A stretch of 64,000 nucleotides of DNA, taken from contig JBMNLI010000012.1 of assembly GCA_050952645.1 (NCBI GenBank), forward strand, positions 192,001 to 256,000. The letters are read 5' to 3'. The DNA comes from Bdellovibrionota bacterium. GTDB lineage: Bacteria > Bdellovibrionota_C > UBA2361 > CAKMMH01. Every line of letters starts with the position of its first letter. Position 1 is the stretch's first letter. A program made the translations under genes and the position numbers. The notes under the pieces are model-generated. The model worked only from the letters and a program-made list of their open reading frames with translations. It was not told the DNA's origin and ran no database searches. Of this stretch, positions 268 to 63,044 are shown one piece after another.

Positions 268-1140
268 ATGAAAAATATGTATTATGATAATTTAACAAAT
301 ACGCAAAATAATATTGGACTTACTAGAGTTATAAGTTTTACTAGTGGAAAAGGGGGAGTTGGGAAAAGCACTAGCCTTATAAATATCGGGGTATCTTTAG
401 TAAATGAAGGAAGAAGAGTGCTAGTGCTCGATGCAGACCTAGGGCTAGCAAACATCGATATCTTATTAGGCTTAACTCCTAAATATACCCTAGAAGATTT
501 ATTATTTAATGAGAAAAGCATAGAAGATATTATTTTAGAATCTCCTTGCGGGCTATCTGTAATTCCTGCAGGAAGCGGAGTTTTAAAACTATTAAATTTA
601 TCAGTAATGCAAAAATCACTTCTAATGAGCGAGGTTGAAAGGATAGCAAAAAATTACGATTATTTGCTAATCGACACTGGGGCTGGGATAAATGATGATG
701 TGCTTTTTTTTAACGCTGCTTCTATGGAAGTAATATGTGTGATAACTAAAGAGCCTACATCGCTTACAGATACTTATTCGTTAATAAAAGTTTTATTACA
801 AAAAGGAGAAAAGGAATTTTCGATATTAGTAAATAATGTTTCTTCAGAGTTAGAAGCTAAGAATACGTATAAAAAATTATTTATGGCAGTAGAAAAGTTT
901 TTAAGAGTAAGACTTAAGTATATTGGATATATTCCGAGTGATGAAAAAGCAAGCGAGGCTATTTTAAAGCAAAAAGCTTACGTAGAAATGTTTCCATCAT
1001 CGGAGATAAGCAGAAAGGTAGTATCGCTTACAAAAAATTTAGATTCTGAGTTTTTTGATTTTAGAGTAAAAGGGGGCATGCAGTTTTTCTTTGAACAATT
1101 ATTAGAACTAAATGATGTTAGGCAAAATGTAGTAGTTTAA
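268..1140 (+). CDS. flhG: MinD/ParA-family ATPase FlhG (FleN), flagellar number regulator
   Basis: Deviant Walker A SGKGGVGKS, DADLGLANID, DTGAG and EPTSLTD motifs; located between flhA and fliA. Confidence 0.92.
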   Translation: MKNMYYDNLTNTQNNIGLTRVISFTSGKGGVGKSTSLINIGVSLVNEGRRVLVLDADLGLANIDILLGLTPKYTLEDLLFNEKSIEDIILESPCGLSVIPAGSGVLKLLNLSVMQKSLLMSEVERIAKNYDYLLIDTGAGINDDVLFFNAASMEVICVITKEPTSLTDTYSLIKVLLQKGEKEFSILVNNVSSELEAKNTYKKLFMAVEKFLRVRLKYIGYIPSDEKASEAILKQKAYVEMFPSSEISRKVVSLTKNLDSEFFDFRVKGGMQFFFEQLLELNDVRQNVVV

Positions 1141-1152
1141 TTTTAAATTAAA

Positions 1153-1383
1153 ATGGCAAGAAATAATAAAAAGAGACAAGGACAGAAAAAAAATTTTTAT
1201 TTTGTAGATAAATATATTGCAGGACTTTCGCTTACCGCATTTATAGTGATTATCGTTGCAGGGCTTATGCATGGAGCTAGCGTTATAACGATTAGTTTAA
1301 GGGCGATAGTAGTAATATTATTTTTAGCTGTAGTTAAAGTTATGTTAGTAAAAATTTTAATGAATTATGCAGGAGATGAGTAG
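1153..1383 (+). CDS. Small two-TM membrane protein of unknown function in flagellar operon
   Basis: 76 aa with a basic N-terminus and two hydrophobic segments. Its TAG stop overlaps the GTG start of fliA. Confidence 0.7.
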   Translation: MARNNKKRQGQKKNFYFVDKYIAGLSLTAFIVIIVAGLMHGASVITISLRAIVVILFLAVVKVMLVKILMNYAGDE

Positions 1384-2132
1384 TGAATAGTAAAAATCTA
1401 AATGGTATCATGGCGTATAAGCATGTTAGTAATAATGAAAAAGATGAGATGATTCGTGCTTATCTTCCACTCGTTAAAAAAGTTGTAAATAGACTTCTAG
1501 GAAGAGTGCCAAAAGGGGTTGATGTAAAAGAAATGATCAACTCTGGAATCATCGGCTTAGTTGATGCTTTAGAAAAGTTTGACCCAGGGAAAGATACTAA
1601 TTTTGCAACTTACGCAAGGTTTAGAATTCAAGGTTCTATTTTAGATAGCTTTCGGTCTCAAGATTGGCTTCCACGCTCGCTAAGAAAAAAGACGCATGAA
1701 ATTGAAGAAGCTTATAGACAAGTAGAGGTAAAGCATGGACGCCCAGCTAGAGATGAAGAGGTTGCAAAGGTGCTTGGAATTTCTCTAGATGAGTTTAATA
1801 AACGCCTTGGGGAAATTAGCAATATAGTGATGATAAGCTTTGAAGAACTTGGCTATGGACATGGCGAAGATAGGTTTAGCAAAGATGATGTGCTAGAAAG
1901 TAAAAGCAAAGACCCTCTATTTAAGCTTTTAAGTAGTGAAAAAGTAGAGTTAGTAGCAAGGTCGCTAGATAGACTTCCTGAAAAAGAACGTTTAGTAATA
2001 AGTTTATATTTCTATGAGGAGTTAAACTTAAAAGAGATAGGGGAGATAATAGGAGTTACGGAGTCTAGGGCTTCGCAAATCCGCTCTAGAGCATTGATAA
2101 GGTTAAAAACGTATTTAAAAAATATTTCTTAA
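1383..2132 (+). CDS. fliA: RNA polymerase sigma-28 factor FliA/WhiG
   Basis: GIIGLVDALEKFDP, FATYARFRIQGSILD..R.QDWLPRS, and region 4 LNLKEIGEIIGVTESRASQI; RBS GGAG upstream. Confidence 0.95.
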   Translation: MNSKNLNGIMAYKHVSNNEKDEMIRAYLPLVKKVVNRLLGRVPKGVDVKEMINSGIIGLVDALEKFDPGKDTNFATYARFRIQGSILDSFRSQDWLPRSLRKKTHEIEEAYRQVEVKHGRPARDEEVAKVLGISLDEFNKRLGEISNIVMISFEELGYGHGEDRFSKDDVLESKSKDPLFKLLSSEKVELVARSLDRLPEKERLVISLYFYEELNLKEIGEIIGVTESRASQIRSRALIRLKTYLKNIS

Positions 2133-2144
2133 TGTATCTTAAAA

Positions 2145-3386
2145 ATGGATGCTGATGCTACGAAAGAAAAAATAATATTATTAGCTGGTGATAAAAATAG
2201 CGAACTCTTTTCATACGTAAACGAAAATTTTAAAGATTATCAAATAAAAGTAGTCTCGTCTTTTGAGGATTGTTTTAGAAAGATAGATGGAGACGATACA
2301 AAAATAATAATAGTTAATAAAAATACTGAAAACTGGGAATACGAGTATTTTATTAGTAAAGTAAAACTTACCATAAACTCTCCTAATGTAATCGTAGTTT
2401 CTAATAAGGTTAATGATGCATTGTATATAAATTCTTTATATTTAAGTGGTTTTTCTAGTTATTTAATAACGACTGAAAAAGATTGGAAAAATAATTTACA
2501 TTCTATAATTAGACATTTAATACGAAATCAAAAATTAGAAGAAATAAATAGAAAGCTTACGGCTAGACTTACAGAGGCTAATATGATGTTAGGTGAAAAA
2601 AATAAAAGGCTAGATGAGTTTTGCACTACCATAGCTCACGATATAAGAGGTCCTCTAGGCTCGCTAGTTATGAAGCTAGATTATATAAAAGATAATTATG
2701 AAATTATAAGCGAAGATAGATTAAGAGCGCTATTAAACACGAGTTTAACCGTTTGCGAAAAACTAATATCGCAAGTGCAAGCTATGTATGATTTTGCAAA
2801 GCTTGGAAAAGAAGCTACTAAAATGGAATTTTTTAATTTAAATGAGCTTATCTTATCTTTAATAGAAGAAATGGATTTTTCAAGTGTTTTAAATAATAAT
2901 TTAAATAGCTCATTAGATAACAAACTAGATAATAAGTTAGATGATAAAATAAATATTAAATTAAATATTAAATTAGACAGTGGTTCAAATGTTAAATTTA
3001 CTATCGATAATTTTCCTGATATATATGGAAGCAAAGAGCTTATAAGGAGGCTATTTTTAAATCTTTTAACTAATGCGATTAAATATAATGATAAGAAAGA
3101 AAAAATTATAAATATAAGTTTTAAAGGGATAGAAACTATGCTTGCAGGAAAGTTTGCTAAGATTTATGTAGAAGATAATGGGAATGGAATTTTAAAAGAA
3201 GATTTAACAAATATTTTTAAGTTATTTAATAGAGCAGGAGAAGCTAGGAGTAAGAAAGAGGGACTAGGAATCGGTCTTGCAGTAGTAGATAGAGTTATAG
3301 AATTGCACCTAGGAAAAATTCAAATAAAATCCCAAATTGGCAAAGGCTCGCTATTTGAGTTTACGCTACCAGTAGAGAAGATGTAA
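2145..3386 (+). CDS. Soluble histidine kinase with degenerate N-terminal receiver-like domain
   Basis: HisKA H-box AHDIRGPL; HATPase NLLTNAIKY, EDNGNGI and GLGIGL motifs. The N-terminal alpha/beta domain lacks the canonical DD/D/K residues. Confidence 0.85.
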   Translation: MDADATKEKIILLAGDKNSELFSYVNENFKDYQIKVVSSFEDCFRKIDGDDTKIIIVNKNTENWEYEYFISKVKLTINSPNVIVVSNKVNDALYINSLYLSGFSSYLITTEKDWKNNLHSIIRHLIRNQKLEEINRKLTARLTEANMMLGEKNKRLDEFCTTIAHDIRGPLGSLVMKLDYIKDNYEIISEDRLRALLNTSLTVCEKLISQVQAMYDFAKLGKEATKMEFFNLNELILSLIEEMDFSSVLNNNLNSSLDNKLDNKLDDKINIKLNIKLDSGSNVKFTIDNFPDIYGSKELIRRLFLNLLTNAIKYNDKKEKIINISFKGIETMLAGKFAKIYVEDNGNGILKEDLTNIFKLFNRAGEARSKKEGLGIGLAVVDRVIELHLGKIQIKSQIGKGSLFEFTLPVEKM

Positions 3387-5011: not shown

Positions 5012-6869
5012 CCTTAACTTTGCAAAAAAGTTCACCTAAAATTTTTTTTGTAATTTTTTATTTATTTGAGCAGCTTTTAATCTTACCTTATCAGCATCTA
5101 TATCAAACGCATTTAATATAGTTTTTTGTCTTTTGCTTACTGCATAGCTCAGCTGATATAAATCCTTACTCCCTCTTACCATTTCAATTTTTTCAAGTTC
5201 TTTTAATGCGGCAGGAACATTCATATAGTTTGGCTTTTTTGTTAGCTTAGAAAGTTCTTCATTAAGTAGAATATAAATGCGATTGCGAATTATAAGTGCT
5301 ATAAACTCTATAAAAATTTTAGCAGATACTGCCTGAGATGAATGAACTCTCATACTTTTTGAGCCTAAAAAAGTCTTATCAATAGCAAAAAGTTTCTCAG
5401 TTGCGTCTCTACCCTTGTAAAGTATTATAGCTTCTTTAGCACTCATTTCTTCCGAACTAACAAGACAAAAATACCCACATAAATTAAGAGCCTTTTGAAT
5501 TTCATCTGCTCTCTCTTCTACTTTTCTTAACTTTCCTTGATTGTCATAACTTAAATCAAAAAATTGCTTATACGTTTGTCCAAACTTTGTATCTTTGCCA
5601 ATATGGTTTTTTAAAAATTGTTCAAACTCCTCTAATTTAATTTCTAGTTGCTCCCTCTCAAATGCTTGCTTTTCCGCACTAAAATAAACATGAAAATAAC
5701 GCTCCTTACTATCATCATCATATAATTTTGATTTCACTGTAGTGCCATATACCTTGTATAAGCGAATACTACAGTCTCTTTTAGACTCAAATGTATTCCT
5801 GTTTTCTTCTACTAATTTAGAAACTAAAGCCTTACACCCTTTTACCATCAATAAAAAAGAAAAACCACTATTATCCATATATTGAATATTATATTTACTA
5901 AAATAACCACGGTCTAAAATAAATCCTATCTTTTTATATCCATACTCTATAACCTTATCTGCCATATGAGTAAATTGAGAAACGTCTGTAATAGAACCAG
6001 GATACTCTTCGTAAAATAACGGAACTCTATTCGTTTGATCAAAGGCAATGGATAAATTAAATACTGGGAATCCTTTTTCGTCTTTCGCTTTACCAAACTC
6101 TACTAATTCAACATCACCTGCTTGACAGTTCTTATTAGTCGAATCATATGAAACGTAAACCATTTGATTGCGATCTTTTCCCTTGTTCCAATCGTCAAGA
6201 AAGTTAATTATCTGCTCTTTGCTAACAGAAGAAAGAAAACGACTTATGGTAGAATCACTATAGATGCGCATACCTTTTGTAAAGAGTGGATGAGAAAAGG
6301 CGTAGTCTGGATAATACTGACTGACATTCTCTTCATTTACAATAAAATAACTCGCTAAATCAAGTATAAGTTCACTACGTTCACCAAAATGTTTTTTTAG
6401 TAAAAAAGGCAAATTAAATTCATTTGCTACTTTTTCAATCACCAAGTGGGGACCTATACGAAGACAACAACTGCGTGAAGCGTCTGAAAATTTCTCGGGC
6501 ATAGGGGCATCTGGAAAATAATTACTATAATTGTCATTAGGGTACATAATATCATCTCTACCATCAACTAATTTTCCAATAACGCTACGCTTTGGATTAG
6601 TATACTGTTTCTCTTTATTATAAGTGCGATCGTATTCAAAAAGCACATATTTTGCTTCCCCTTTTTCTCTTATAATTATTTTATTTCTTTGCTCTGGTAA
6701 TGGAACTGTTCGATTGTAATTCATAAAACCTCCTTTAGGTTAACGGTTGCACTAAAAGTATAGCATAGTAAATACACAGATGCAAGTAAAAAAATGCATA
6801 ATTTAACGATTATTTCTTATTTATTTTAATTGATTATTTGTTTAGGTGAACTTTTTTGAAAAGTTAAGG
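5012..6869 (-). mobile_element. Complete IS1634-family (IS4-like DDE) insertion sequence
   Basis: 29-bp terminal inverted repeats at 5012-5040 and 6841-6869 with 1 mismatch (CCTTAACTTT(G/T)CAAAAAAGTTCACCTAAA). 5-bp direct repeat AATAA at 5007-5011 and 6870-6874. Confidence 0.92.
5036..6724 (-). CDS. IS1634-family transposase
   Basis: 562 aa; DDE motifs SYDST, ILDRGYFS and Y(2)R(3)E(6)K (YKGRDATEKLFAIDK). The stop codon lies inside the IR. Confidence 0.9.
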   Translation of the reverse strand: MNYNRTVPLPEQRNKIIIREKGEAKYVLFEYDRTYNKEKQYTNPKRSVIGKLVDGRDDIMYPNDNYSNYFPDAPMPEKFSDASRSCCLRIGPHLVIEKVANEFNLPFLLKKHFGERSELILDLASYFIVNEENVSQYYPDYAFSHPLFTKGMRIYSDSTISRFLSSVSKEQIINFLDDWNKGKDRNQMVYVSYDSTNKNCQAGDVELVEFGKAKDEKGFPVFNLSIAFDQTNRVPLFYEEYPGSITDVSQFTHMADKVIEYGYKKIGFILDRGYFSKYNIQYMDNSGFSFLLMVKGCKALVSKLVEENRNTFESKRDCSIRLYKVYGTTVKSKLYDDDSKERYFHVYFSAEKQAFEREQLEIKLEEFEQFLKNHIGKDTKFGQTYKQFFDLSYDNQGKLRKVEERADEIQKALNLCGYFCLVSSEEMSAKEAIILYKGRDATEKLFAIDKTFLGSKSMRVHSSQAVSAKIFIEFIALIIRNRIYILLNEELSKLTKKPNYMNVPAALKELEKIEMVRGSKDLYQLSYAVSKRQKTILNAFDIDADKVRLKAAQINKKLQKKF

Positions 6870-21519: not shown

Positions 21520-22335
21520 ATGAGTTATTTTTTTGATAACAATAATTATCTTATAGCTAGAAATATTATAGATCTACTCTTAGTGACGTTTATCATTTAT
21601 AGAGTGCTTCTTCTTTTAAAGGGAACTAGAGCCGCAGCGATGCTTATAGGTTTATTTATAGTAGTTGCTACGTATTTTATCGCAAGCTTTTTAGAATTAA
21701 AAACTCTTTCTTGGATATTATATCAATTCTTAAGTTCGATTATTATAATCTTGATAGTAATTTTTCAAGATGAAATAAAAAGAGGCCTAACAAAAGTAGG
21801 AATAAAATCTTTTTTTAAATTGCAACGCCAAACGGACGTAGAAACGGATAAAATTATCGATGAGTTGACGCTTGCTACGATTAGGCTTTCTCAAGATAAA
21901 ACTGGTGCTCTTATCGTAATAAAGGGAGATGTGGGATTAGATGATTTTTTAGAAGATGCGACGATTCTTGATGCTGTAATAAATAGGAAATTAATTCTTG
22001 CAGTTTTCGATAAAAATTCTGCTCTTCACGATGGGGCAATGATTATTGAGGGTGGGAGAATTAAAGCCGTAGGGTGCATGCTTCCTCTTAGCTACGACCC
22101 GAATATAGACCCAATCTTAGGCACTAGGCATAGAGCGGCACTAGGTATCTCAGAAAGAAGCGATGCGATAATTATCGTAGTATCTGAAGAAACTGGGGGG
22201 ATTACGATTTGTAGAGATAGAAAACTACATAGGAATTTAGACCCTGTAATGCTTAGAGAGTTTTTGCAAAATTTTTTATCTTTACAAAATAATAATAAAA
22301 ATAATAATTCAAATAAAAGTGAGGAAATTAAGTGA
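21520..22335 (+). CDS. cdaA: Diadenylate cyclase CdaA (DacA)
   Basis: Three N-terminal TM helices; DAC motifs LHDGA and GTRHRAA. Confidence 0.95.
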   Translation: MSYFFDNNNYLIARNIIDLLLVTFIIYRVLLLLKGTRAAAMLIGLFIVVATYFIASFLELKTLSWILYQFLSSIIIILIVIFQDEIKRGLTKVGIKSFFKLQRQTDVETDKIIDELTLATIRLSQDKTGALIVIKGDVGLDDFLEDATILDAVINRKLILAVFDKNSALHDGAMIIEGGRIKAVGCMLPLSYDPNIDPILGTRHRAALGISERSDAIIIVVSEETGGITICRDRKLHRNLDPVMLREFLQNFLSLQNNNKNNNSNKSEEIK

Positions 22336-23225
22336 AAAATTTTGGACTTCTTATAATCTCATTTATTATCGCTATTTGTTTAATGTTTATAGTTAATGAT
22401 AGGTCTGGGACATCTAGCACAAACTTAGTAGTGCCAGTAGTTACCTCAAATTTACCTACCGATAAAATAGTCGTGTCAACCTCAAAATCTCAAGTGCAAG
22501 TAACTATAAAAGGTCCATCTTACTTATTAAATAATATTAGCAGAACTGGTGTTAATCTTAATATAAAATTTCCAGACAATGTTTCTAATGCTTATAGCAG
22601 AATGCTCTCTCCTAGCGATTTACACTTGCCAACAGGAGTGGAGGTTTTGAATATAGAACCTCATGAACTAAGCTTCACGATAGATAATTTGGTATCTAAG
22701 CGAGTTCCCGTAGTAGTGCCTAGAATAGGCTCGTTAGATAATGCTTATAGACTAGTAGAGTTTAAAGTAGAGCCTGAAGCCGTTGAACTTGTAGGTTCTG
22801 AAATAGAGTTAAGGGGGATAAAAAGAGTTCAAACTGAGTCTGTAGATTTAAGAAATATAACTAGTAGCACGGTGCAAGATGTTAAACTTAGACAAGTTGG
22901 TTCTTTTGTTAAAGCAAATAGCGAAATGGTTAAAGTTAATATCATAATAAGAGACGTGCAAGATACAAAAGAGATAAAGGGACTTAATATTGAAATTAGA
23001 AATGAGGTTAATAAACAGTTTGACGTTAATTATAAAACTGTAGATGTTATGGTTAAGGGAGCTAAAAAAGATATAAAAGTGTTAAATGCAAATAAGGTAA
23101 GGCCTTTTATAAAAATAGATGAGGAAGCTAGTAAAAATAAGCAAGCAAATTTAGAGTTTGAGCTTCCAGATGGGATTTCACTATTCAGTAGCAATCCTAA
23201 AAATGTTTCGTTAAAGGAAAAATAG
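22332..23225 (+). CDS. cdaR: CdaA regulator CdaR (YbbR domains)
   Basis: N-terminal TM and beta-rich YbbR-like repeats; GTGA overlap with cdaA; conserved cdaA-cdaR-glmM order. Confidence 0.85.
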   Translation: MKNFGLLIISFIIAICLMFIVNDRSGTSSTNLVVPVVTSNLPTDKIVVSTSKSQVQVTIKGPSYLLNNISRTGVNLNIKFPDNVSNAYSRMLSPSDLHLPTGVEVLNIEPHELSFTIDNLVSKRVPVVVPRIGSLDNAYRLVEFKVEPEAVELVGSEIELRGIKRVQTESVDLRNITSSTVQDVKLRQVGSFVKANSEMVKVNIIIRDVQDTKEIKGLNIEIRNEVNKQFDVNYKTVDVMVKGAKKDIKVLNANKVRPFIKIDEEASKNKQANLEFELPDGISLFSSNPKNVSLKEK

Positions 23226-23317
23226 AAAACAATTAAGATAAGTTTTTTAAAAAAAACAAAAAAGAAAAAACAAAAAAACAAAGCTATATAATTTTAGTTA
23301 AATTTAAAGGAGATATT

Positions 23318-24676
23318 ATGACGGTTGTATTTTCAAAAACGGGAATTAGAGGGGAAGCTGGAAAGTATCCATTAGAGCCTATATCTTTAGTAAGATTAGG
23401 AATGATTATAGCAAAGGTATTTAGAGAAAATAATAACTCTCCCTTATCATTCGTAATAGGACGAGATACTAGAGTTTCTAGTTATATGATAACGAACGCT
23501 TTAACCTCAGGGCTATTAGCAGGGGGAGCAAATGTAGTGCTAGTAGGCGTTGAGCCTACGCCAGCTATAGTGTATTTCGGAAAGAGTTTTAGAGCGTGTG
23601 CTAGCATTGCAGTTACTGCCTCTCACAATCCGTATCAAGACAACGGGTTAAAGCTTTTTTTATCCGATGGGAATAGGATTTCAGACGATATGCAAAAGAA
23701 GATAGATGAGCTTTTACAAAGTGATGCTAAATTTGAGGTGGCAAGAGAGTTAGGAAAAATTATAAAAATAGAAGACGCAGATGGAAGGTATATTGAATAC
23801 TTAAAAAGTTTTTTTCCAAATGATTTTAATTTAAGAGATTTTAAAATTGGGTTAGATGTTGCAAATGGTGCCTGTTATAAAGTAGCTGAAAAATTATTTA
23901 CAGAACTTGGTGCTAATATAGAGATTAGAGGAAATAAACCTAATGGAAAAAATATAAATGCAGGTTTTGGGAGTGTTTACCCGGAGGTTGTAGCTAAATT
24001 AGTAGTCGATAATAGTTTAGATTTAGGAATAGCCGTTGATGGTGATGGCGATAGAGTGGTAATGGTAACTAGCGATGGAAAAATACTAGATGGCGATGCA
24101 TTATTAGCGATAATCGGTTCTACTTTAAAAGAAATGGGAAAATTAAATAGTAATATAAATACTAACGTAATAGTCGCTAATGTTATGTCTAATTTAGGTC
24201 TCGATCTTTTTTTAAAAAACCATGGAGTTGCAGTCAAGCGTTCAAACGTTGGTGAGGTGCCAGTGTTAAATGAGATGAAAAAAAATGATGCTAGTGTTGG
24301 AGGTGAACAATCTGGGCATATCATATTTAAAGATGGTGGAAACTCAGGAGATGCGCTACTAGCTTCCCTAAAGATACTAGAAATTATGAAGACGACGAAC
24401 AAATCTTTAAAAGAATTAAAAAGAGATTACAAAGGTTTCCCTCAATGCCTTAAAAATTTAAGTGTTGCTTCAAAGCCTGAGATAGAAGAAATTAAAGGGT
24501 ATGCTAAGTTAAAAGAAGATATAGAAAACGAGTTTAAGGAAGATGGCCGAATTTTAATAAGGTATTCTGAAACTGAAAATAAGATAAGAATTATGGTAGA
24601 ACATAAAGATGAGAGCGTTTGCAAAAAGGCTCTAGAAAAATTAGTAATATTTTTTGAAGAAAAAATTGGTATATAG
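23318..24676 (+). CDS. glmM: Phosphoglucosamine mutase
   Basis: TASHNP, DGDGDR and GGEQSGH motifs; operon context. Confidence 0.9.
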   Translation: MTVVFSKTGIRGEAGKYPLEPISLVRLGMIIAKVFRENNNSPLSFVIGRDTRVSSYMITNALTSGLLAGGANVVLVGVEPTPAIVYFGKSFRACASIAVTASHNPYQDNGLKLFLSDGNRISDDMQKKIDELLQSDAKFEVARELGKIIKIEDADGRYIEYLKSFFPNDFNLRDFKIGLDVANGACYKVAEKLFTELGANIEIRGNKPNGKNINAGFGSVYPEVVAKLVVDNSLDLGIAVDGDGDRVVMVTSDGKILDGDALLAIIGSTLKEMGKLNSNINTNVIVANVMSNLGLDLFLKNHGVAVKRSNVGEVPVLNEMKKNDASVGGEQSGHIIFKDGGNSGDALLASLKILEIMKTTNKSLKELKRDYKGFPQCLKNLSVASKPEIEEIKGYAKLKEDIENEFKEDGRILIRYSETENKIRIMVEHKDESVCKKALEKLVIFFEEKIGI

Positions 24677-25191: not shown

Positions 25192-27879
25192 TTATTTTTT
25201 TTCTAAGCAAGTAGCTCTGCTAGTTATATCTTGCGAGTTGAAAATGTCTAAATTGCTTAAGATTTTTTCTGCATCTTTGTCCATGTTATTTTTTATAACA
25301 TTATATTCGGTGTCAACATAACCACGATCGCAACCAAAGCGCTCTTTATTTAAACGGTTTTGCTCGTTGTTTAGATAAGGATTGTTTTTACAGCCTTCAT
25401 TTGCTTTCGATAATACATCTATAGCTTGCTTATGCAGTTTTTTAAATTCTTCTTTTAGTAATTTCGTATTGTAAGACACATTGTAGTTATTACAAATCGA
25501 TGATTTACATTCGATAGCATTTTCATCTAGAACTTCTTTTTCAATAGTATTTAAATAATCATCTAATGATTTTTTAAAACGTGTCATAAATACGCTTAAA
25601 TATGCATTTTCTCTTAGAATTATTTTCTTATAAGTCCTAACTAATGAGCGGTCGTAATCTTCTATTTGTAATTTTAGTGCATTTTTTATTAAACGAAGAT
25701 TAGTTAAATATTGGCATTCATATTCGTCTAATATTTTATTATTTCCCTGTTTATCTTTAGTAGATGCTGTAATAAAATTATTATTGTTTTTATCTGGCAA
25801 TTGCCAAGAATAAATAGAATCGTAATCTAATGGTAGAAAAACGATTTTTTCTAGAGGGCTTACACTATTTTCAAAAAAGAGTTCAGGTTGTCCTAAGCCT
25901 TCCTTTATTTCTTCTTTTTGACCATCTTTGCTCGTTTTAATAATTAAATTATTAACTCCTTTAGGGTAATAAATAGGAAATTCATTTTTATTATCGTAGC
26001 TAAATATAGCTATTTTGCTTTTAAATAAATCTTGCACAAACCCTTCAAACTTAGGAATTACGTTTTCGCATTTTGTAGAGTTTTTATTTGCTACTACTGT
26101 TTCGATGTCTTCATTAGTATTTCTTAAACTCCAAGAAACGCTAGAGTTTTCATTAAACACTACTTGAGTAGTTCCCTTATGGACGCCAGGCAAGAATTTA
26201 GTCATTTGCCAAGTTGGCGTTTTAGGTGCATCATCATTAGTAGAAACGGTTATCATACTTTTATAACTGCCACTATAAAGGTTTGTCTCATTGCTTCTAT
26301 TTCCTACATTGATTTCAATTGGCTTTTCAAGCTTATTTTCATAACCAAAATATGCAGTAAGAGTTTTATCTCCATTGTCGGTAATACATTCTAGCCTTGG
26401 CGTTAAGTTTTTAACTACCACTTTAGGTGTACGAGTAGGAGTAGGCGTTCTCTTTACTACTCTTTTAGAAGGCTCAGTTGATGTAGTAGGAGCTGGTGTA
26501 TCGCAACCGTTTTTTACCGATGTCTTAATTTTTATAGGGTTCCTGTATGAAATCGATCTTAAAGGGCAAGAATAAGTATACTGTTTGCCATCTATACATT
26601 CATCTGTTTTTTGAAAGTTTTCTCCGGTTTGTGGAATATAGTTCTTTAAAATCATAACGGTTCCATCTTTTTTAATGCAAGAATAGCGATCCGCACATTT
26701 AAAAGCATAACAAGTTTGCCCCTCTTTGCATTTGCTTAAATCTGCCCCGTAGCACTCAACACATTTTTTTAATGAAGGATTATATACCTGAGTTTCAGGA
26801 CATCGAGAGTCTTTCGTATCTGGTGTTTTTAGTTCTTCTTGCTTTGTAGCATCGCTAGGGATATCATTTTTGATATCGTTTTCTTTCGGGCAATTTGCTT
26901 TAGTCTTTGTTTCATCTATTATAAAATTACGAACGGTTGGTCCTTCATCTCTACAAGTAAAAGTGTGCTGAATATTGTCTTTGCAATAATCAGTTTTTCT
27001 ATTATCACGCCCAAGCGGAGAGCCGTTTTTATACTTTTGAACCGTTCCGTCTTTCTTTTCGCAAGTATATGCATCTTTACATTGATTATTTAAACACATT
27101 TGTCCTTTTTTACATTTTGATGTATCACTTTCAGTGCATTGCACGCATTGCTGTAAAAATGAAGAATACACTTGAGTCGATAGGCAAGCGTAGCATTTAG
27201 AATTTTTGCATACAGGTTTATCTTTCGGGCATCGAATACCGCTATATCCTGCATCATAGCTAGCATTACATTCGGGGTTGCAAGATAAAGTAGCTCCATT
27301 ACAGCCATATTTACATGGCTCAGCTTTTGTAGCTATTTGATTATTTTTGCAATACGCTATATTGATAAATCTATTGCCAAGAATGCAGCTAGTCGTTTTT
27401 TCAGTTCCGTACATATACGCTCCATTTTTAGTTCTAATTGCTCCTCTAGGTGTTAGTGCGCAACCATAAACATCTTTTTTAGGGTCTATTAATTTTTTTC
27501 CTTTACAAGTAAGACTAGTTACGTACAAAGTGCCTAAATCTCTATCCGTAATTTCTCTGCAAGTCGATGATTGAGACCCTGTGCATAAATAATATTTATA
27601 GTGTTTTGAATTTGTTTCAGTTGCACCAATACTTTTTATATTAGAGCCAACGTTAAAAGAATTATAATTCTGAGATAGGCAAAATAGCGCAGCTGGTGTA
27701 TTACCTTTAGGCGATAACTCATGTTTTAATAAATACCTATTATCGAGTCCGTGTCTAGAAGAAATGGTTCTCCCGATATTAAATTCTGAGAATATTTTTT
27801 CATCACTCGCTCCATAGCTAATATTAGAAAACCCTAAAAATGAAAGTGTAATTAAAACTAAATATATATATTTTTTCAT
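25192..27879 (-). CDS. Large secreted cysteine-rich repeat protein of unknown function
   Basis: Signal peptide, many Cys, a duplicated ~80-aa Cys module, a Pro/Thr linker and two P..E..A.F.Y.N beta modules. Confidence 0.85.
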   Translation of the reverse strand: MKKYIYLVLITLSFLGFSNISYGASDEKIFSEFNIGRTISSRHGLDNRYLLKHELSPKGNTPAALFCLSQNYNSFNVGSNIKSIGATETNSKHYKYYLCTGSQSSTCREITDRDLGTLYVTSLTCKGKKLIDPKKDVYGCALTPRGAIRTKNGAYMYGTEKTTSCILGNRFINIAYCKNNQIATKAEPCKYGCNGATLSCNPECNASYDAGYSGIRCPKDKPVCKNSKCYACLSTQVYSSFLQQCVQCTESDTSKCKKGQMCLNNQCKDAYTCEKKDGTVQKYKNGSPLGRDNRKTDYCKDNIQHTFTCRDEGPTVRNFIIDETKTKANCPKENDIKNDIPSDATKQEELKTPDTKDSRCPETQVYNPSLKKCVECYGADLSKCKEGQTCYAFKCADRYSCIKKDGTVMILKNYIPQTGENFQKTDECIDGKQYTYSCPLRSISYRNPIKIKTSVKNGCDTPAPTTSTEPSKRVVKRTPTPTRTPKVVVKNLTPRLECITDNGDKTLTAYFGYENKLEKPIEINVGNRSNETNLYSGSYKSMITVSTNDDAPKTPTWQMTKFLPGVHKGTTQVVFNENSSVSWSLRNTNEDIETVVANKNSTKCENVIPKFEGFVQDLFKSKIAIFSYDNKNEFPIYYPKGVNNLIIKTSKDGQKEEIKEGLGQPELFFENSVSPLEKIVFLPLDYDSIYSWQLPDKNNNNFITASTKDKQGNNKILDEYECQYLTNLRLIKNALKLQIEDYDRSLVRTYKKIILRENAYLSVFMTRFKKSLDDYLNTIEKEVLDENAIECKSSICNNYNVSYNTKLLKEEFKKLHKQAIDVLSKANEGCKNNPYLNNEQNRLNKERFGCDRGYVDTEYNVIKNNMDKDAEKILSNLDIFNSQDITSRATCLEKK

Positions 27880-29349: not shown

Positions 29350-29373
29350 GATTATTGAGATTTAAGTAAAAAA

Positions 29374-29410
29374 AGGCTCTGCAATATAAAATATATAAAA
29401 TGCAAAGCCT
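29374..29410 (+). terminator. Putative hairpin after the PfkB kinase gene
   Basis: AGGCTCTGCA...TGCAAAGCCT inverted repeat with a long loop. Confidence 0.4.
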
Positions 29411-29744
29411 AGTGTGTAAATTAGTTAGAAAAAGTATTTATTCGGGAGTATCAACAAAACTCTGTAAAAGTGAAAATTCTAAGTTAATAAATCTATAGTA
29501 CTTGTTAAAACATAATTTATTAGAAATACTTCTGAAATAATTCCTAATAAACAAAATAAATTTATAAATATATTTATATTAATTTAATATTTTTATGCAA
29601 ATTATAAAAATTAAAGATTTTTTCTTAAAAAAATACCTTTATATTTCCGCTTTTAGTTTTAATTTTTAACTTCTTATGGTAAAATAACGCTCATTTGATG
29701 ATTTTATCGTTTAATTATTAAAAAAATTAAAAAGGAAAAATTTT

Positions 29745-31040
29745 ATGAACGTTTGCCTAAAATCTTTCGAGAATAAAAAAATTCTAATAGTCGATGATGA
29801 AGAAAGCATTAGAAAAATTTTACAAAGCATATTTGAAGATGCAGGTTTCAAAGTTTTCTTAGCAAAAGATGGTGATGAAGCTATAAAACAAGTAGAGGAT
29901 AATAACCCAGATTTAGTATTTTTAGATATATGGATGCCAGGGAAAGATGGGCTTGAAGTTATGGAAATTTTAAAAGAAAAGAGAAAAGATCTTCCTATAA
30001 TTATGATTAGTGGACACGCTACTATCGCTACCGCCGTTAAGGCAACTCAAGAAGGAGCCTTTGATTTTATAGAAAAACCTTTAGATTTAGACTTGATATT
30101 AAACACTGTCGAAAAGGCTTTAAACTCAAAAGGAGATCTCTCTAGAAATGATGCGAAGCTAGAAAATAGAAAAATAAACAATATCGTTTTTCAAAATCAA
30201 GCGATGAAAGGTAAAAAAATCCCACAAAGAACTTTAAAAACGAGTGCAGTTTTATACGGTTTAGGTTTACATTCTGGCAAAAAAACTGGAATCATCTTAG
30301 AGCCACTTCCAGCAAACTCTGGAATCCATTTTGAAGGTATCACAGAAGAGGCTGTAATTCCAGCGCATATAGATTTTGTATCTTCGACAGGATTTGCTAC
30401 AACATTAAAATTAGGAGATAAACAAGTAGCTACCATAGAACATATGATGTCGTCTTTAAGTGCTTATAGAATTTCAAACCTTTTAATAAAATGCAATGGT
30501 GAAGTTCCCGTAATGGACGGCTCATCGATAGAATTTTGCAAACTTATAGAAAATGTAGGTATCGTAGAGCAAGAGGGAGATTGGTATGAAATAAAAATTG
30601 ATGAGACGCTTAAAATAGAAGATGGGCAGAAATCGATAACCGTAGAAAAGGCTGATATACCAAGTATAAAATATATTCTTGAATATCCAGAACCGCTAGG
30701 AAGACAAGAAGTCGAGTTTGTTATGAATGATGTAGAGGTTTATAAAAAAGAAATAGCAACCGCTAGAACGTTTGGTTTTGTAAAGGATATAAATATGCTC
30801 CAAGATAAGGGGCTTGCACAAGGTGGGCAATTTAATAATTTTGTATTATATGGTGGTGAAGGCCCTATAAATTCTGAATTACACTTTAAAGATGAGGCTG
30901 CAAGACATAAAGTTTTAGATGCTATGGGTGATTTGTATTTATTAGGACGCCCAATTTGTGGTAAAATCACGGCCGTAATGACTGGGCATTCGGATAATAT
31001 AAAATTAGTAAAATTATTAAAAGAAAAAATGGAGTGTTAA
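29745..31040 (+). CDS. lpxC: Response-regulator receiver domain fused to UDP-3-O-acyl-GlcNAc deacetylase LpxC
   Basis: Residues ~10-126 form a REC domain (ILIVDDE, FLDIWMP, MISGH, FIEKP). From ~160 on it is LpxC (QRTL...GLHSG, TIEH, EVPVMDGS, ARTFGF, RHKVLDAMGDL, GH). Confidence 0.93.
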   Translation: MNVCLKSFENKKILIVDDEESIRKILQSIFEDAGFKVFLAKDGDEAIKQVEDNNPDLVFLDIWMPGKDGLEVMEILKEKRKDLPIIMISGHATIATAVKATQEGAFDFIEKPLDLDLILNTVEKALNSKGDLSRNDAKLENRKINNIVFQNQAMKGKKIPQRTLKTSAVLYGLGLHSGKKTGIILEPLPANSGIHFEGITEEAVIPAHIDFVSSTGFATTLKLGDKQVATIEHMMSSLSAYRISNLLIKCNGEVPVMDGSSIEFCKLIENVGIVEQEGDWYEIKIDETLKIEDGQKSITVEKADIPSIKYILEYPEPLGRQEVEFVMNDVEVYKKEIATARTFGFVKDINMLQDKGLAQGGQFNNFVLYGGEGPINSELHFKDEAARHKVLDAMGDLYLLGRPICGKITAVMTGHSDNIKLVKLLKEKMEC

Positions 31041-31168: not shown

Positions 31169-32185
31169 ATGTTTAGATTATTTTCACCTAATTTAGCTAT
31201 CGATTTAGGAACGGCTAATACGCTTTTTTACGAAAGTGGAACTGGAGTCGTTTTAAATGAACCATCAATGGTTGCGCTTTCCTATTTTGAAGGCAAACAA
31301 GAGATCGTCGCTATTGGTGCAGAGGCTAAACAGATGCTTGGTAGAACTCCCGAAGGGGTAGATGTTATAAGACCTATAAGAACTGGAGTTATAGCAGATT
31401 TTGATGTAGCAAGTAGAATGATAAAATATTTCTTAAATTCTGCTAGAAAAAAAAGAGCTTCTCTTATTAGACCATCGCATATCATTGTAGGAGTCCCTAG
31501 TGGAATTACAGAGGTTGAAAAACGTGCTATAAAAGATGCTCTCGAAGGAGAAGCAAGAGATATAAAGCTAATAGATGAGGCGATGGCGGCAGCCATTGGG
31601 TGTAATCTTCCAGTGACGGAGGCTACTGCATCTATGATAGTCGATATAGGCGGCGGGACTACAGATATTGCAGTTATAAGTCTCTCAGATATAGTCTACT
31701 CAACATCTATTAGGCAAGGGGGAGACGCTATGGACGAGGCTATAATAAATTACATCAAAAGAAAACATAGAATTTTTATAGGAGAGTCAACCGCAGAGCT
31801 TATAAAAATGACTATCGGTTCTGCGCATAAAACTTACGATAATCAACAAGTAGAGGTAAGAGGAAGAGATTTGTCAACGGGCGTCCCAGGAACAGTTGTA
31901 ATAAGTGGGATAGAGATAAGAGAGGCGATTTTTGAGGTTATCTCAAACATTATAGAAGCTATCAAGCAAGTTTTAGAAAATACTCTTCCAGAGCTTTCAG
32001 GGGATATCTTATCGTCGGGAATTTCATTTGCTGGAGGTGGCGCTTTAATTAGAGGATTAGATAAAAGAATACTAGAAACTTTAGATATAAAGGCAAATAT
32101 TGCTCCAGACCCACTTTCTATGGTAGTAAGCGGTATAGGTAAATGCTTAGAAGACCCTAAAATGTATAAAGACGTATTTTTATAA
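31169..32185 (+). CDS. mreB: Rod shape-determining actin-like protein MreB (stand-alone)
   Basis: LAIDLGTANT, VVLNEPS, IRPI..GVIADF, VDIGGGTT and GGGALIRG motifs. Confidence 0.93.
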   Translation: MFRLFSPNLAIDLGTANTLFYESGTGVVLNEPSMVALSYFEGKQEIVAIGAEAKQMLGRTPEGVDVIRPIRTGVIADFDVASRMIKYFLNSARKKRASLIRPSHIIVGVPSGITEVEKRAIKDALEGEARDIKLIDEAMAAAIGCNLPVTEATASMIVDIGGGTTDIAVISLSDIVYSTSIRQGGDAMDEAIINYIKRKHRIFIGESTAELIKMTIGSAHKTYDNQQVEVRGRDLSTGVPGTVVISGIEIREAIFEVISNIIEAIKQVLENTLPELSGDILSSGISFAGGGALIRGLDKRILETLDIKANIAPDPLSMVVSGIGKCLEDPKMYKDVFL

Positions 32186-34858: not shown

Positions 34859-37640
34859 ATGGATAAAATTTACATTATAGACTCTTCTGGTTATATATTT
34901 AGGGCATTTTACGCTATAACTAATCTTACTACAAAATCGGGATTTCCGACTAACGCATTGTACGGCTTTTTAAAAATGTATATAAAACTATTAAAGGAAG
35001 CAGACCCAAAGTATATAGTTTCAGTGTTTGATACGGGAGAGAAGAATTTTAGACACGCCTTATATCCCGAATATAAAGCGAATAGGGCTAAATGCCCCGA
35101 TGAACTTTCGGTTCAAATGCCTTTTTTTAGAGATTTTGTTAATGCACTAGGTATAAAAGTATTAGAAAAAGTAGGCTTTGAGGCAGATGATATAATAGCA
35201 ACCGTTTCAGATAAGGCTAGTAGCCTTAATATGAGCGTTGAAATAGTATCTGCCGATAAAGACTTGATGCAGCTAGTAGGTGGCAATGTATCTATCTTTG
35301 ATACTATGAAAGATAAACATTACGATAAAGAAGAGGTAAAGGCTAAGTTTGGAATATACCCTGAAAAAATAAGAGATTATTTAGCACTAGTAGGAGATAG
35401 CTCTGATAATGTCCCTGGAATTAAAGGGCTAGGCCCTAAGACTGCTACTTTGCTTTTAGAAAATTATGAAAATATAGATAAAGTTTACTCATCACTTTCT
35501 ACGATAGAAAACGATAAAAGTATAAGAGGCGCTAAAAGTCTAGTAAAGAATTTACTAGATAATAAAGAAACTTTGCTTCTTAGCAAAAAGTTAGTATCCC
35601 TAGAGCGAAACGTTCCATTAAATTTTGATAACAAAGATTTTGAAAATTTTAATATAGAAGATTTTAAAAGCTTTTTTAAAAAAAGATAAACTAGACGATG
35701 ATGCGCTTTCTTTGTTAATAGAAAAGTTTGAGTTTCAAAGTCTATTTAAATCTTTTCTAGAAGATAAGCTATCTAGTAGCAATGTAAATATAAATACTAA
35801 AAAAGAAATTTCTAATGATTGCACTAATGATTGCTCTAATAATTACGAAGTAAAAACTATTTTTAAAGATGATATAAAAGATTTTATTTCACTTTTACAA
35901 AAGCAAAAATTTTTTGCTTTCGATGTCGAGACTACTTCGCTAGATATATTTAAAGCAAAGATAGTGGGAGTATCTTTCTGTTTTGATAATGATAAAGCAT
36001 ACTACGTGCCGCTACTTCATGAAGTTATTTTTTCTGAGAATAAACAAATCTCTGTAGAGGAGTTTATAAAACTTATAAAAGATATTTTAGAAAATGATAA
36101 TATTAAAAAAACTGGGCATAATTTAAAATTTGATATAGAGATTTTCAAAAATCATGGTGTAGACGTTTTAGGAATAGTTTTTGACTCTATGATAGCCTCT
36201 TACCTTTTAAACCCAGATGATGTTTCATTTTCACTATCACGAGTAGTAAAAAAATATCTTGGCCACGATTGTATAGAATATAAAGATGTCGTAGGAAAAA
36301 AGAAAAATTTTTCAGAGGTTGATATCGAAACTGCTTCAAAGTATTCAGCAGAAGATGCGTATTTTTCTTTTATATTGTATTTAAAATTAAACGATGAGCT
36401 AACGAAAAAAGATCTTTTAAAAGTATTTTACGAAATAGACTTGCCACTTTTAAATGTTCTTGCCACAATGGAGTTAAATGGAGTTTATATCGATACTCAG
36501 CAATTAAGAAAAAGTTCTATGTTTTTTGCAAAAGAGTTAGAAATTTTAGAACAAGAAATTTATGAGCTTGCAGGTAGCACTTTTAATATAAATTCTCCTA
36601 AACAATTAAGTTATATCTTATTTGAAAAATTAAATATTAGCACAGCTGGGCTTAAAAAAACTCAATTCGGTTTTTCAACCGATGTAAACACTCTTGAAAA
36701 ATTAAAAAACATTCACCCAATAGCTGAAAAGCTATTAAAGTATAGAGGGATTTTTAAGTTAAAGAGTACTTATTTAGATGCACTTCCAGAGTTTGTATCC
36801 TCTAAAACTAATAGGTTGCATACTAGGTATAATCAAGCAGGCACTGGCACTGGGAGGCTTTCAAGTTCAGACCCTAATTTGCAAAATATTCCTATTAAAA
36901 CTTTAGAGGGAAGAAAAATAAGGAGTGCTTTTTTAGCTCCAAGCGAAAAGGTGATAATATCCGCCGACTATTCGCAAGTTGAGCTTAGAGTGCTAGCCCA
37001 TATGAGCAAAGATAAGACGTTAATAGAGGCTTTTAATAAAGGAGAGGATATTCATACTAAAACTGCAAAATTTATATTTGAGCTAAAGGCTACGGATACG
37101 CCGACGCAAGAGCAAAGAAGATTTGCTAAAGTTATAAACTTTGGTTTAATTTATGGTATGAGTGCTTACGGGCTATCTAACGAGCTTTCTATTAGCGTTC
37201 AAACTGCTAAAAAATATATAGACGGTTTCTTTAATAAGTATTTTGGAGTTAAAGAATATTTTGATAAGCTTTTAAAAGATGTAGAGAGCTTAGGCTACGT
37301 ATCTACGATGTTTGGAAGAAAAAGGTTTGTTTCTTCTCTTTTTAGTGATAATAAAAACAAAGGATATTTAAATAGAATGGCTATTAATGCGCCTATTCAA
37401 GGCACTGCGGCGGATATAATAAAATTGGCTATGATTAGTATTCATAATGAAATAATAGATAGAAATCTAAAATTAAAAATGATATTGCAAATACACGATG
37501 AACTCGTATTTGAATGCGATGAAAGTTTTAAAGATGAGGCGATAAGTTTTATAAAAACACAAATGGAAAGTATAACTTTGCTAGACGTTCCATTAAAAGT
37601 AGATGTAGGGAGTGGGGCGTCTTGGGAAGATGCTCATTAA
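34859..37640 (+). CDS. polA: DNA polymerase I, split by one extra base in the T6A7 run at 35672-35684
   Basis: 5'-3' exonuclease ORF (34859-35689) followed by the 3'-5' exonuclease/polymerase ORF (DYSQVELR, KVINFGLIYG, QIHDEL). Removing one base gives a continuous SFFKKDKLDDDALSLLIEKFEF. Confidence 0.92.
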
Positions 37641-61647: not shown

Positions 61648-63042
61648 ATGTTATTTATTAAAGATCTACATAAATCAAAGGATATAGAGTTAAAAGAGTA
61701 TGTGTTTAAGGGGTGGGTTAAAACTCACAGGGAATCGAAGAATGTTTCGTTTATAGAGCTTACTGATGGAAGTAGTGTTAAGGGGCTTCAGTTAGTAATA
61801 AACCCTGAATTAAGTTCTTATAAGGAGATTGCAGAAAAGATTGGCACGGGGGCTTCTATAGAGGTAAGGGGGGATTTAAAAGAGTCTCCTTCAAAGGGGC
61901 AAAATTACGAGTTAGAGGTAAAAGAGATAACTTTAATAGGGCAAGCTTGCAAAGCTACTTATCCTCTTCAGAAAAAGGGGCATACGTTAGAATTTTTAAG
62001 AGAGATACAGCATTTAAGGGCTAGGTCTAATACGTTAGGTGCAGTGTTTAGAGTGCGTTCAAAGGCTAGTGTGGCGATACATACTTTTTTTTCTGAGCGT
62101 GATTTTTATTATATACATACGCCAATTATTACCTCATCTGACTGTGAGGGTGCTGGGGAGGTGTTTAGCGTAACTACTCTAAACTTAGATGATTTGCCTA
62201 AAGATGATAAGGGCAAGGTTGATTATACGAAAGATTTTTTTAAAAAGCATGTAGGGCTTACAGTTTCTGGGCAACTTCAAGCTGAGGCTATGGCTACGGC
62301 TCTTGGTCGTGTGTATACTTTTGGCCCAACATTTAGGGCTGAAAATTCTAATACTGTAAGGCATCTATCTGAGTTTTGGATGGTTGAGCCTGAGATGGCT
62401 TTTTGCACGTTAGAAGACAATATAAAAGTTGCACAGGAGTTTATAAAATATATTATTAAGTATTTGCTTGATAATTCTCTTGAAGATTTAGAGTTTTTAC
62501 ATTCACTTTCTTGGGCGCCTAAGGGGCTTATGGATACGTTAAAGCACGTAGTAAATTCTAAGAGTGAGGTTATGACTTATACTAAAGCCATTGAAATTTT
62601 AGAAAAGTCGAGTAAAAAGTTTGAGTATCCAGTTCATTGGGGGATAGATCTTCAATCTGAGCATGAGAGATATTTAACTGAGGAGCATTTAAAGTGCCCA
62701 GTGTTTTTAATAGATTATCCAAAGGAGATAAAGGCTTTTTATATGAAGCTTAATAAGGATAATAAAACTGTAAAGGCTATGGATTTATTAGTTCCTGGGT
62801 TAGGAGAGATCGTAGGTGGTTCTGAGAGAGAAGAAAACTACGATGTATTGCTAGGAAGGATTAATGAGTTAGGCTTACGTAAGGAAGATTACAGTTGGTA
62901 TTTAGATTTAAGAAAGTACGGCAGCGTCCCACATTCAGGTTTTGGCTTAGGACTTGAAAGATTTATAATGTATATAACAGGCATACAAAACATCCGCGAC
63001 GTTATCCTATTTCCTAGAGCGCCAGGGCAGATTTTTGGGTAA
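61648..63042 (+). CDS. asnS: Asparagine--tRNA ligase
   Basis: YPLQKK, LTVSGQL, FRAENSNT.RHL.EFWM.EPE, DLQSEHERYL and PHSGFGLGLER motifs. Confidence 0.97.
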   Translation: MLFIKDLHKSKDIELKEYVFKGWVKTHRESKNVSFIELTDGSSVKGLQLVINPELSSYKEIAEKIGTGASIEVRGDLKESPSKGQNYELEVKEITLIGQACKATYPLQKKGHTLEFLREIQHLRARSNTLGAVFRVRSKASVAIHTFFSERDFYYIHTPIITSSDCEGAGEVFSVTTLNLDDLPKDDKGKVDYTKDFFKKHVGLTVSGQLQAEAMATALGRVYTFGPTFRAENSNTVRHLSEFWMVEPEMAFCTLEDNIKVAQEFIKYIIKYLLDNSLEDLEFLHSLSWAPKGLMDTLKHVVNSKSEVMTYTKAIEILEKSSKKFEYPVHWGIDLQSEHERYLTEEHLKCPVFLIDYPKEIKAFYMKLNKDNKTVKAMDLLVPGLGEIVGGSEREENYDVLLGRINELGLRKEDYSWYLDLRKYGSVPHSGFGLGLERFIMYITGIQNIRDVILFPRAPGQIFG

Positions 63043-63044
63043 GG

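Follow-up and report, generated by a model that had tools for sequence, protein, structure and literature searches.

The window, a stretch of 64,000 nucleotides from a Bdellovibrionota bacterium (contig JBMNLI010000012.1 of assembly GCA_050952645.1), carries at 29745..31040 on the plus strand a gene that joins a response regulator receiver (REC) domain to LpxC, the enzyme of the committed and normally essential step of lipid A synthesis. The gene is a single open frame of 431 amino acids (aa) with no internal stop and holds the assembly's only lpxC match. Pfam placed Response_reg at aa 13-122 (115.5 bits; cut-off 30.2) and LpxC at aa 161-425 (265.8 bits; cut-off 27), the latter covering positions 1-266 of the 268 in PF03331; this bears out the uninterrupted REC-LpxC frame claimed earlier from the letters and open reading frames alone (the sequence-only reading). 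The cut-off of the lpxC model TIGR00325 was also passed (224.5 bits; cut-off 187.25). The best NCBIfam match of the receiver part was NtrX, and against the NtrX family model NF051870 the fusion protein scored 135.8 bits, below the cut-off of 600. Response_reg and LpxC were its sole Pfam domains; the AAA+ and helix-turn-helix (HTH) DNA-binding output of an NtrX is lacking. We conclude that the fusion protein is an LpxC with a receiver, NtrX-derived and not itself an NtrX.

All features of the gene lie on the plus strand. The NtrX-type receiver domain (29781..30125; Pfam aa 13-122, with the last helix reaching aa 127) contains the acidic pocket D17-D18 (29793..29798), the predicted phosphoacceptor D61 in the NtrX-type D-x-W motif of FLDIWMP (29925..29927), the switch residue S89 of ISGH (30009..30011) and the conserved K111 of EKP (30075..30077). 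We take the phosphoacceptor role of D61 from what is generally held of receiver-domain biochemistry. D17, D18, D61 and K111 were invariant, and position 89 was S or T, in all 126 distinct fused receivers (S in 121, T in 5) and in 120/120 homologues. A linker of about 33 aa (aa 128-160; 30126..30224), estimated before at about 35, leads to the LpxC deacetylase domain (aa 161-425; 30225..31019), which is followed by 6 residues and no long C-terminal tail. The linker site is where longer relatives retain a degenerate AAA+ domain and an HTH remnant. Within LpxC we located the conserved EH pair E232-H233 (30438..30443), presumably catalytic Glu and Zn ligand like E. coli E78/H79, the Zn-binding motif H388-K389-x-L-D392 (30906..30920) and the conserved H415 of GH 414-415 (30987..30989), which we take to be the catalytic His equivalent to E. 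coli H265. E232, H233, H388, K389, D392 and H415 were invariant in the homologue alignments. Every motif previously named from the sequence (DD, FLDIWMP, ISGH, EKP, EH, HKxLD and GH) was thus found in the protein.

An AlphaFold2 model of the fusion had a mean predicted local distance difference test (pLDDT) score of 86.9 and a predicted template modelling (TM) score of 0.72, with both domains confident and low confidence at aa 131-138 of the linker. The receiver adopted the (beta/alpha)5 fold with the full DD, D, S/T and K pentad, and the Foldseek hits listed for the LpxC part were all LpxC (root-mean-square deviation down to 1.4, target TM up to 0.95). Complex prediction of the receiver (aa 9-132) against linker plus LpxC (aa 140-431) scored 0.00 in two runs, which we weighed neither for nor against an interface. 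Only one LpxC match was present in the whole assembly (1.95 Mb, 93.75% complete), as the sequence-only reading had asked to be checked. From this sole-copy status and the presence of lpxA, lpxB, lpxK and an lpxI-like gene, all in the assembly, we infer LpxC deacetylase activity. A FabZ-like gene is separate and lies beside lpxA (read by eye). Read support for the junction had also been called for: a contig of the independent run X2 spans 30015-30496 with 0 differences and bridges it. The full linker was bridged by one of four runs, X3, X5 and X6 covering the gene only in pieces. The observation of the fusion is confirmed.

The fusion is lineage-wide in the host phylum; the sequence-only reading had named its absence from all relatives as grounds for giving it up. 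The 119 best non-self homologue clusters all contained both domains (52-83% identity), and both domains stood in one open frame in 35 of 40 relatives, 4 others being cut by contig ends and 1 lacking an LpxC match. In the host phylum, LpxC was found in 95/96 genomes, in a frame of at least 430 aa in 89 of them and at or near contig ends in the other 6. In other orders of the host class a receiver was present at 19 of 20 loci read; the 20th is a 2-kb contig cut upstream. The nearest named relatives are labelled Bdellovibrionota or uncultured Bdellovibrionales, others Deferrimicrobiaceae or Deltaproteobacteria, and one divergent member Spirochaetota. A second phylum, to which a Deferrimicrobiaceae genome belongs, gave an LpxC match in 119 of 121 sampled genomes, 28 in long frames; all 26 long-frame loci fetched carried a receiver (20 REC-LpxC, 6 REC-AAA-LpxC). 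The class of genome G137 had the full-length fusion in 59/61 genomes. All carriers of the fusion seen here are metagenome-assembled genomes. LpxC-FabZ as the cause of long frames was ruled out at 19/20 class-level and 26/26 second-phylum loci. A search for longer forms (756-2155 aa) returned one protein, a REC-AAA-HTH-LpxC, and no kinase-fused LpxC in that size range, which is weak evidence. One class relative has a second, highly divergent LpxC-like frame (G054:C104:910-1719; 41.8 bits).

The sequence-only reading had called the receiver NtrX/NtrC-like, and best NCBIfam match, tree and signature residues now place it as NtrX-type. D-x-W, SGH, EKP and D32 are common to fused receivers and NtrX and are not shared by other sigma54 regulators. 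In a tree of 113 receivers, 71 fused receivers and 5 NtrX fell on one side of a branch (Shimodaira-Hasegawa-like approximate likelihood ratio test, 99), with 37 others on the opposite side; this was a quick tree of 118 columns with only 5 NtrX rows and many open forks. The best PDB sequence matches of the receiver were 4d6x and 5m7n, which we take to be Brucella NtrX. The receiver groups with NtrX, suggesting that it is derived from one.

A tree of 96 LpxC domains put all 57 fused domains on one side of a long branch (support 100) and the 39 stand-alone domains on the other. In fused LpxC, 17 conserved positions are specific to the family, including G182, K249, C265, Y314, G319 and R402, and 13 positions depart from the stand-alone consensus; the 17 could mark a contact with receiver or linker. 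The tree is unrooted, and a single origin of the fusion would be its simplest reading. Deferrimicrobiaceae sequences nest within the host order, which suggests transfer. Genomes G100 (L067/L171) and G101 (L071/L172) each hold an ntrY-ntrX pair plus a REC-LpxC that nests among host-order sequences, a possible case of horizontal transfer.

Four gene arrangements were found among living relatives. In the first, lpxC, ntrY and ntrX are separate genes in a row (L233, L236, L244), and ntrY follows lpxC at several more loci. In the second, ntrY is followed by a REC-AAA-HTH-like-LpxC gene (L206, L229). Some REC-AAA-LpxC proteins are labelled 'NtrX' in IMG, and GAFTGA, the sigma54-contact motif of the AAA+ part, is lost from 6/6 of them and kept in 5/5 NtrX. 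Proteins of this type (L206, L229, L216, L217, L219, L225; P0125 and similar) are 680-770 aa long, and most keep a Walker A-like motif plus an AAA lid; the degenerate AAA+ part may still bind nucleotide or oligomerise. P0140 retains the HTH only. In the third arrangement ntrY is followed by REC-LpxC (L218, L221, L230), and in the fourth the fused gene is unlinked from ntrY, as in the host phylum. Directly upstream of the long-frame lpxC, ntrY was present at 5 of the 26 second-phylum loci; in the class of G137 it preceded the fused gene at 29 of 30 loci read, the exception having 98 bp of upstream DNA. We infer that the four arrangements form an ordered series, with each stage represented by living forms and not by ancestors. 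From the receiver Lys to the start of LpxC we counted 40-88 aa in two-domain forms and 307-364 aa in long forms, a variable linker that favours dimerisation or tethering over a single rigid interface.

Using an NtrX query, we found full-length NtrX in all 14 stand-alone-LpxC genomes tested (476-812 bits, 55-81% identity). It was not found in 78 host-phylum genomes, in which up to 20 candidates per genome were scored (best 47%, 383 bits), nor in 5 further fusion genomes. Scanning 300 nt upstream with up to one mismatch to the standard consensus, we found a sigma54 motif at 20 of 39 stand-alone lpxC genes, compared with 0.1 expected from shuffles, and at 0/49 and 0/25 fused genes. In the window the 395-bp, AT-rich intergenic region before the fused gene (29350..29744, plus strand) has no sigma54 -24/-12 motif, and a scan of it for sigma70-like promoters and terminators was at chance level (9 found, 9.4 expected from shuffles). 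G133 (L228, L231) has both kinds of gene: a stand-alone lpxC, which has a sigma54 motif and lies beside ntrY and an lpxK-like gene, and a divergent REC-LpxC elsewhere.

No cognate kinase gene adjoins the fused gene, as had been stated: its neighbours are a PfkB kinase gene and mreB. Among the gene clusters listed for 80 named loci, read by eye, no recurrent adjacent kinase was seen. We counted ten receiver matches and six histidine kinases in the genome. One of the latter, 95 kb upstream on the same contig and outside the window, is an orphan NtrY-like kinase of 766 aa (G000:C12:124811-127108) with no regulator beside it. Pfam assigns it NtrY_N (24 bits; cut-off 23.2), HAMP, PAS, HisKA and HATPase. 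It has the H-box HEIKNPLTPIxLSAQR, and in its specificity helix, TPIKLSAQR, it agrees with kinases that adjoin NtrX or the fusion; the genome's other five kinases differ. In the kinase tree all 33 NtrY-like rows grouped together (support 97), separate from 6 others. One NtrY match was present in 92 of 96 host-phylum genomes and in 20/20 other fusion genomes. At 30 ntrY loci of the host order ruvB precedes ntrY in 28, with no receiver gene within 1.5 kb; L218 and L230 read ruvB-ntrY-REC-lpxC, which ties the orphan ntrY to the fusion-adjacent kinases. The fused gene here lies 95 kb from ntrY and not directly after it, the position expected of an ntrX. Taken together, the sequence comparisons make the orphan NtrY-like kinase the likely partner of REC-LpxC.

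In relatives ntrY is preceded by a small gene with a match to DUF4390 (5 of 6 tested at E<0.01, 2 over the cut-off). PlrP of Bordetella belongs to DUF4390 and holds the phosphatase activity of its NtrY-type kinase in check (PMC13001219). In the host family ntrY follows ruvB directly; the DUF4390 gene, which stands between the two in most of the order, is missing there at 3/3 loci read (G000:C12:123670-127108, which is L112 and L120; L121; L122). Loci of this kind would let NtrY be studied in the natural absence of its periplasmic partner.

The sequence-only reading had described the protein as a response regulator with an LpxC output and offered the kinase at 2145..3386 (plus strand) as a candidate partner. 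The first part gains from the invariant phosphorylation-site residues, the NtrX ancestry and the adjacency of ntrY in relatives; the kinase was tried and rejected. It has no NtrY_N, HAMP or PAS, its helix reads GSLVMKLD as against TPIxLSAQR, it falls outside the NtrY group, and its gene comes after fliA. The plus-strand genes at 268-3386 encode an FlhG/MinD-like ATPase, fliA and this soluble histidine kinase, in that order, and possibly act in flagellar regulation; by eye the N-terminus of the kinase resembles a degenerate receiver, with no Pfam receiver match.

We consider it probable that the orphan NtrY-like kinase phosphorylates D61 and so sets LpxC output directly, transcriptional control of lpxC having been converted into phospho-control of the enzyme. 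The ancestor would have been an NtrY-NtrX pair whose dedicated role was to activate lpxC at a sigma54 promoter, as in the Desulfovibrio system discussed below. The ntrX gene would then have been joined in frame to lpxC, the AAA+ and DNA-binding parts would have decayed and been deleted, and the gene would later have separated from ntrY in the host phylum. In the present cell NtrY would both phosphorylate and dephosphorylate D61, its kinase/phosphatase balance would set the share of phosphorylated REC-LpxC, and this share would set the flux into lipid A; an envelope cue would be the likeliest signal to NtrY. If this is so, we lean towards a change in catalytic activity, through relief of inhibition or receiver-driven dimerisation, and find a change in turnover or membrane localisation the somewhat less probable route. 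We also somewhat prefer phosphorylation as the 'on' state, because the ancestral NtrX would have been of the activator type and NtrX of these lineages keeps the activator motif. For whole uncultured lineages, the chances seem to us about even that a sigma54 circuit has been turned into a direct phospho-switch on LpxC, with all intermediates still living and with NtrY, often accompanied by a DUF4390 periplasmic partner, as an envelope sensor whose only output is LpxC activity.

Several points weigh against the predicted direct phospho-control by NtrY, a reading based on architecture, residue conservation, receiver ancestry, synteny and promoter pattern. Fusion and NtrX are not mutually exclusive: G100 and G101, two of six fusion-only genomes, also hold full NtrX beside ntrY. 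G133, with stand-alone and fused LpxC, has no NtrX match. Ten of the 14 stand-alone control genomes were picked for ntrY near lpxC, the stand-alone lpxC set is biased to top Pfam scorers, and kin genomes in all these counts are not independent. Many fused genes are operon-internal, which weakens the negative sigma54 counts within 300 nt. The divergent fused representatives P0145 (D to N) and P0148 (D to S) lack the phospho-Asp with the LpxC Zn motif intact and are possible pseudo-receiver forms. The variable linker fits poorly with one fixed allosteric interface. No NtrY match was found at 1e-60 in 4 of the 96 host-phylum genomes, and DUF4390 (PF14334), usual in the host order, was not found in this genome. 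An OmpR-family regulator (G000:C17:186345-187031, L114) has no obvious cognate among the six kinases. The comparison with the Desulfovibrio regulators DVU2934/Dde_3003 was by published description and sigma54 motif. NtrYX of alphaproteobacteria lowers lpxC expression, which leaves the direction of control uncertain.

The receiver may instead be uncoupled, a left-over of the fusion or a phosphate sink for NtrY, with LpxC constitutively active. The free linker length and the two representatives without phospho-Asp would be expected on this view, and the decayed AAA+ part that persists in some lineages shows that useless parts can linger. However, the receiver active site stayed invariant in 126/126 through the decay and loss of the AAA+ and HTH parts, and single-copy NtrY was kept in 92/96 genomes with no NtrX found there. 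No clear full-length, receiver-less member of the fused clade was seen in the genomes examined. We regard such a relic as unlikely.

We are similarly doubtful of a receiver that serves as a tether, docking LpxC on the membrane kinase, or that feeds the state of LpxC back to NtrY, the phosphorylation level in either case not setting lipid A flux. A tether would leave linker length free to vary, and the genome yielded no second target of NtrY, so that no transcriptional output is left to explain. Docking alone, however, would not need the full set of phospho-chemistry residues, and kinase-receiver contacts are usually transient. Reverse signalling would have no evident downstream reader, as NtrX is absent. 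A precedent for recruitment exists in Neisseria, where Ght brings LpxC to the membrane (PMC12444477).

It is very unlikely that the receiver is controlled by another donor, be it the kinase at 2145-3386, a hybrid kinase or acetyl phosphate. The distance of 95 kb to ntrY, unlinked across the host phylum, leaves room for one, and PlrR, the Bordetella NtrX homologue, can be phosphorylated by an unknown donor (PMC13001219). Against this, the other five kinases have different specificity helices, the four of them placed in the kinase tree do not group with NtrY, the window kinase comes after the flhG-like gene and fliA, and it is ntrY that adjoins the fusion in relatives. Even a small-molecule donor, if NtrY acted as the phosphatase, would amount to the circuit of direct phospho-control by NtrY. 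An assembly artefact or chance read-through joining two genes, which at least one probable indel nearby (the frameshifted polA described below) might suggest, is refuted by the independent contig across the junction and by the single frame in 35/40 relatives and all 119 homologue clusters, and can practically be dismissed.

Downstream of the fused gene lies mreB (31169..32185, plus strand), its downstream neighbour in the host family and nearby in part of the order; we treat this adjacency as context that does not imply a functional link. In much of the host order, read by eye at L006-L031, purA is followed by the fused gene and then by a 3-hydroxybutyryl-CoA dehydrogenase-like gene and mreB, of which this genome keeps only mreB. 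Further along, a frameshift at a T6-A7 run near 35674-35686 breaks polA (34859-37640, plus strand) into two frames, one for the 5'-3' exonuclease and one for the polymerase; polA is intact in 3/3 family relatives, so the split is probably an assembly indel. Upstream, cdaA (diadenylate cyclase), a YbbR/CdaR-like gene and glmM are consecutive at 21520-24676 (plus strand), in a bacterium that makes lipid A. At 25192-27879 (minus strand) an 895-aa protein has a likely signal peptide, Cys-rich repeats and a Pro/Thr-rich linker and no Pfam or NCBIfam match at the thresholds used. An IS1634-family transposase is encoded at 5036-6724 (minus strand), and a short open reading frame near the window end (63035-63439, plus strand) looks by eye like a transposase fragment.

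LpxC is the main control point of lipopolysaccharide (LPS) synthesis and an antibiotic target. Both domains of the fusion are already known, as are two-component control of lpxC transcription and receiver-enzyme fusions as a class. The sequence-only reading knew of no description of the architecture, and we found none in the literature searched; output-domain catalogues, InterPro or subscription journals may hold a mention. In the parts consulted, a 2025 review on how lipid A synthesis is regulated names three modes for LpxC (proteolysis, partner binding and transcriptional control), does not use the words 'fusion', 'fused' or 'receiver', and describes little as known outside Proteobacteria (PMC12444477). 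If direct phospho-control is true, a membrane sensor kinase would act on the enzyme and not on its gene, and proteolysis and partner binding would be joined by a new mode of LPS homeostasis. It would also be a rare, well-sampled case of a transcription factor becoming the regulatory domain of an enzyme, and the two-protein system with its enzymatic read-out would make the signal of NtrY testable in vitro.

Among known systems, the bifunctional LpxC-FabZ (PRK13188) is alike in fusing LpxC to a second domain at similar total length. There the partner is a C-terminal dehydratase; our protein scores 198.5 against a cut-off of 465, over the LpxC part only, with no FabZ domain. Stand-alone LpxC, controlled in E. 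coli by FtsH/LapB/YejM and in other ways elsewhere (PMC12444477), has the same fold and catalytic residues, and the protein described here passes the same TIGR00325 model. It differs in its N-terminal receiver, the lack of a long C-terminal tail and its own long-stemmed clade. Searches of this genome turned up neither the LapB zinc ribbon nor YejM DUF3413; FtsH was not searched for.

In Desulfovibrio (DVU2931/DVU2934; Dde_3000/Dde_3003) lpxC is the sole known target of a kinase and a sigma54 regulator; it has a sigma54 promoter, and its level rises in the kinase mutant (PMC3333781, PMC4045070). The same promoter motif lies upstream of the 20 of 39 stand-alone lpxC genes reported above. That system acts on transcription via a separate REC-AAA-HTH protein, whereas in the fusion the enzyme itself bears the receiver, and AAA+, HTH and sigma54 motif are all lacking. 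In R. sphaeroides, loss of NtrYX raises lpxC mRNA 8.8-fold and doubles LPS, indirectly (PMC7240162). The NtrY/NtrX systems of Rhodobacter, Caulobacter and Brucella, and PlrSR with PlrP in Bordetella, resemble ours in that the receiver groups with NtrX, the kinase is built as NtrY_N-HAMP-PAS-HisKA, and a DUF4390-like gene precedes ntrY in relatives. They differ in that the output here is an enzyme and not DNA binding, the known effect of NtrYX on lpxC being transcriptional and indirect. Response regulators with enzymatic outputs include CheB, PleD/WspR and RpfG, and the outputs are mostly signalling enzymes. As in these, the receiver of the fusion is N-terminal to the enzyme and control is presumed to occur by Asp phosphorylation; in contrast to them, the output is a core biosynthetic step and the enzyme the only copy in the genome.

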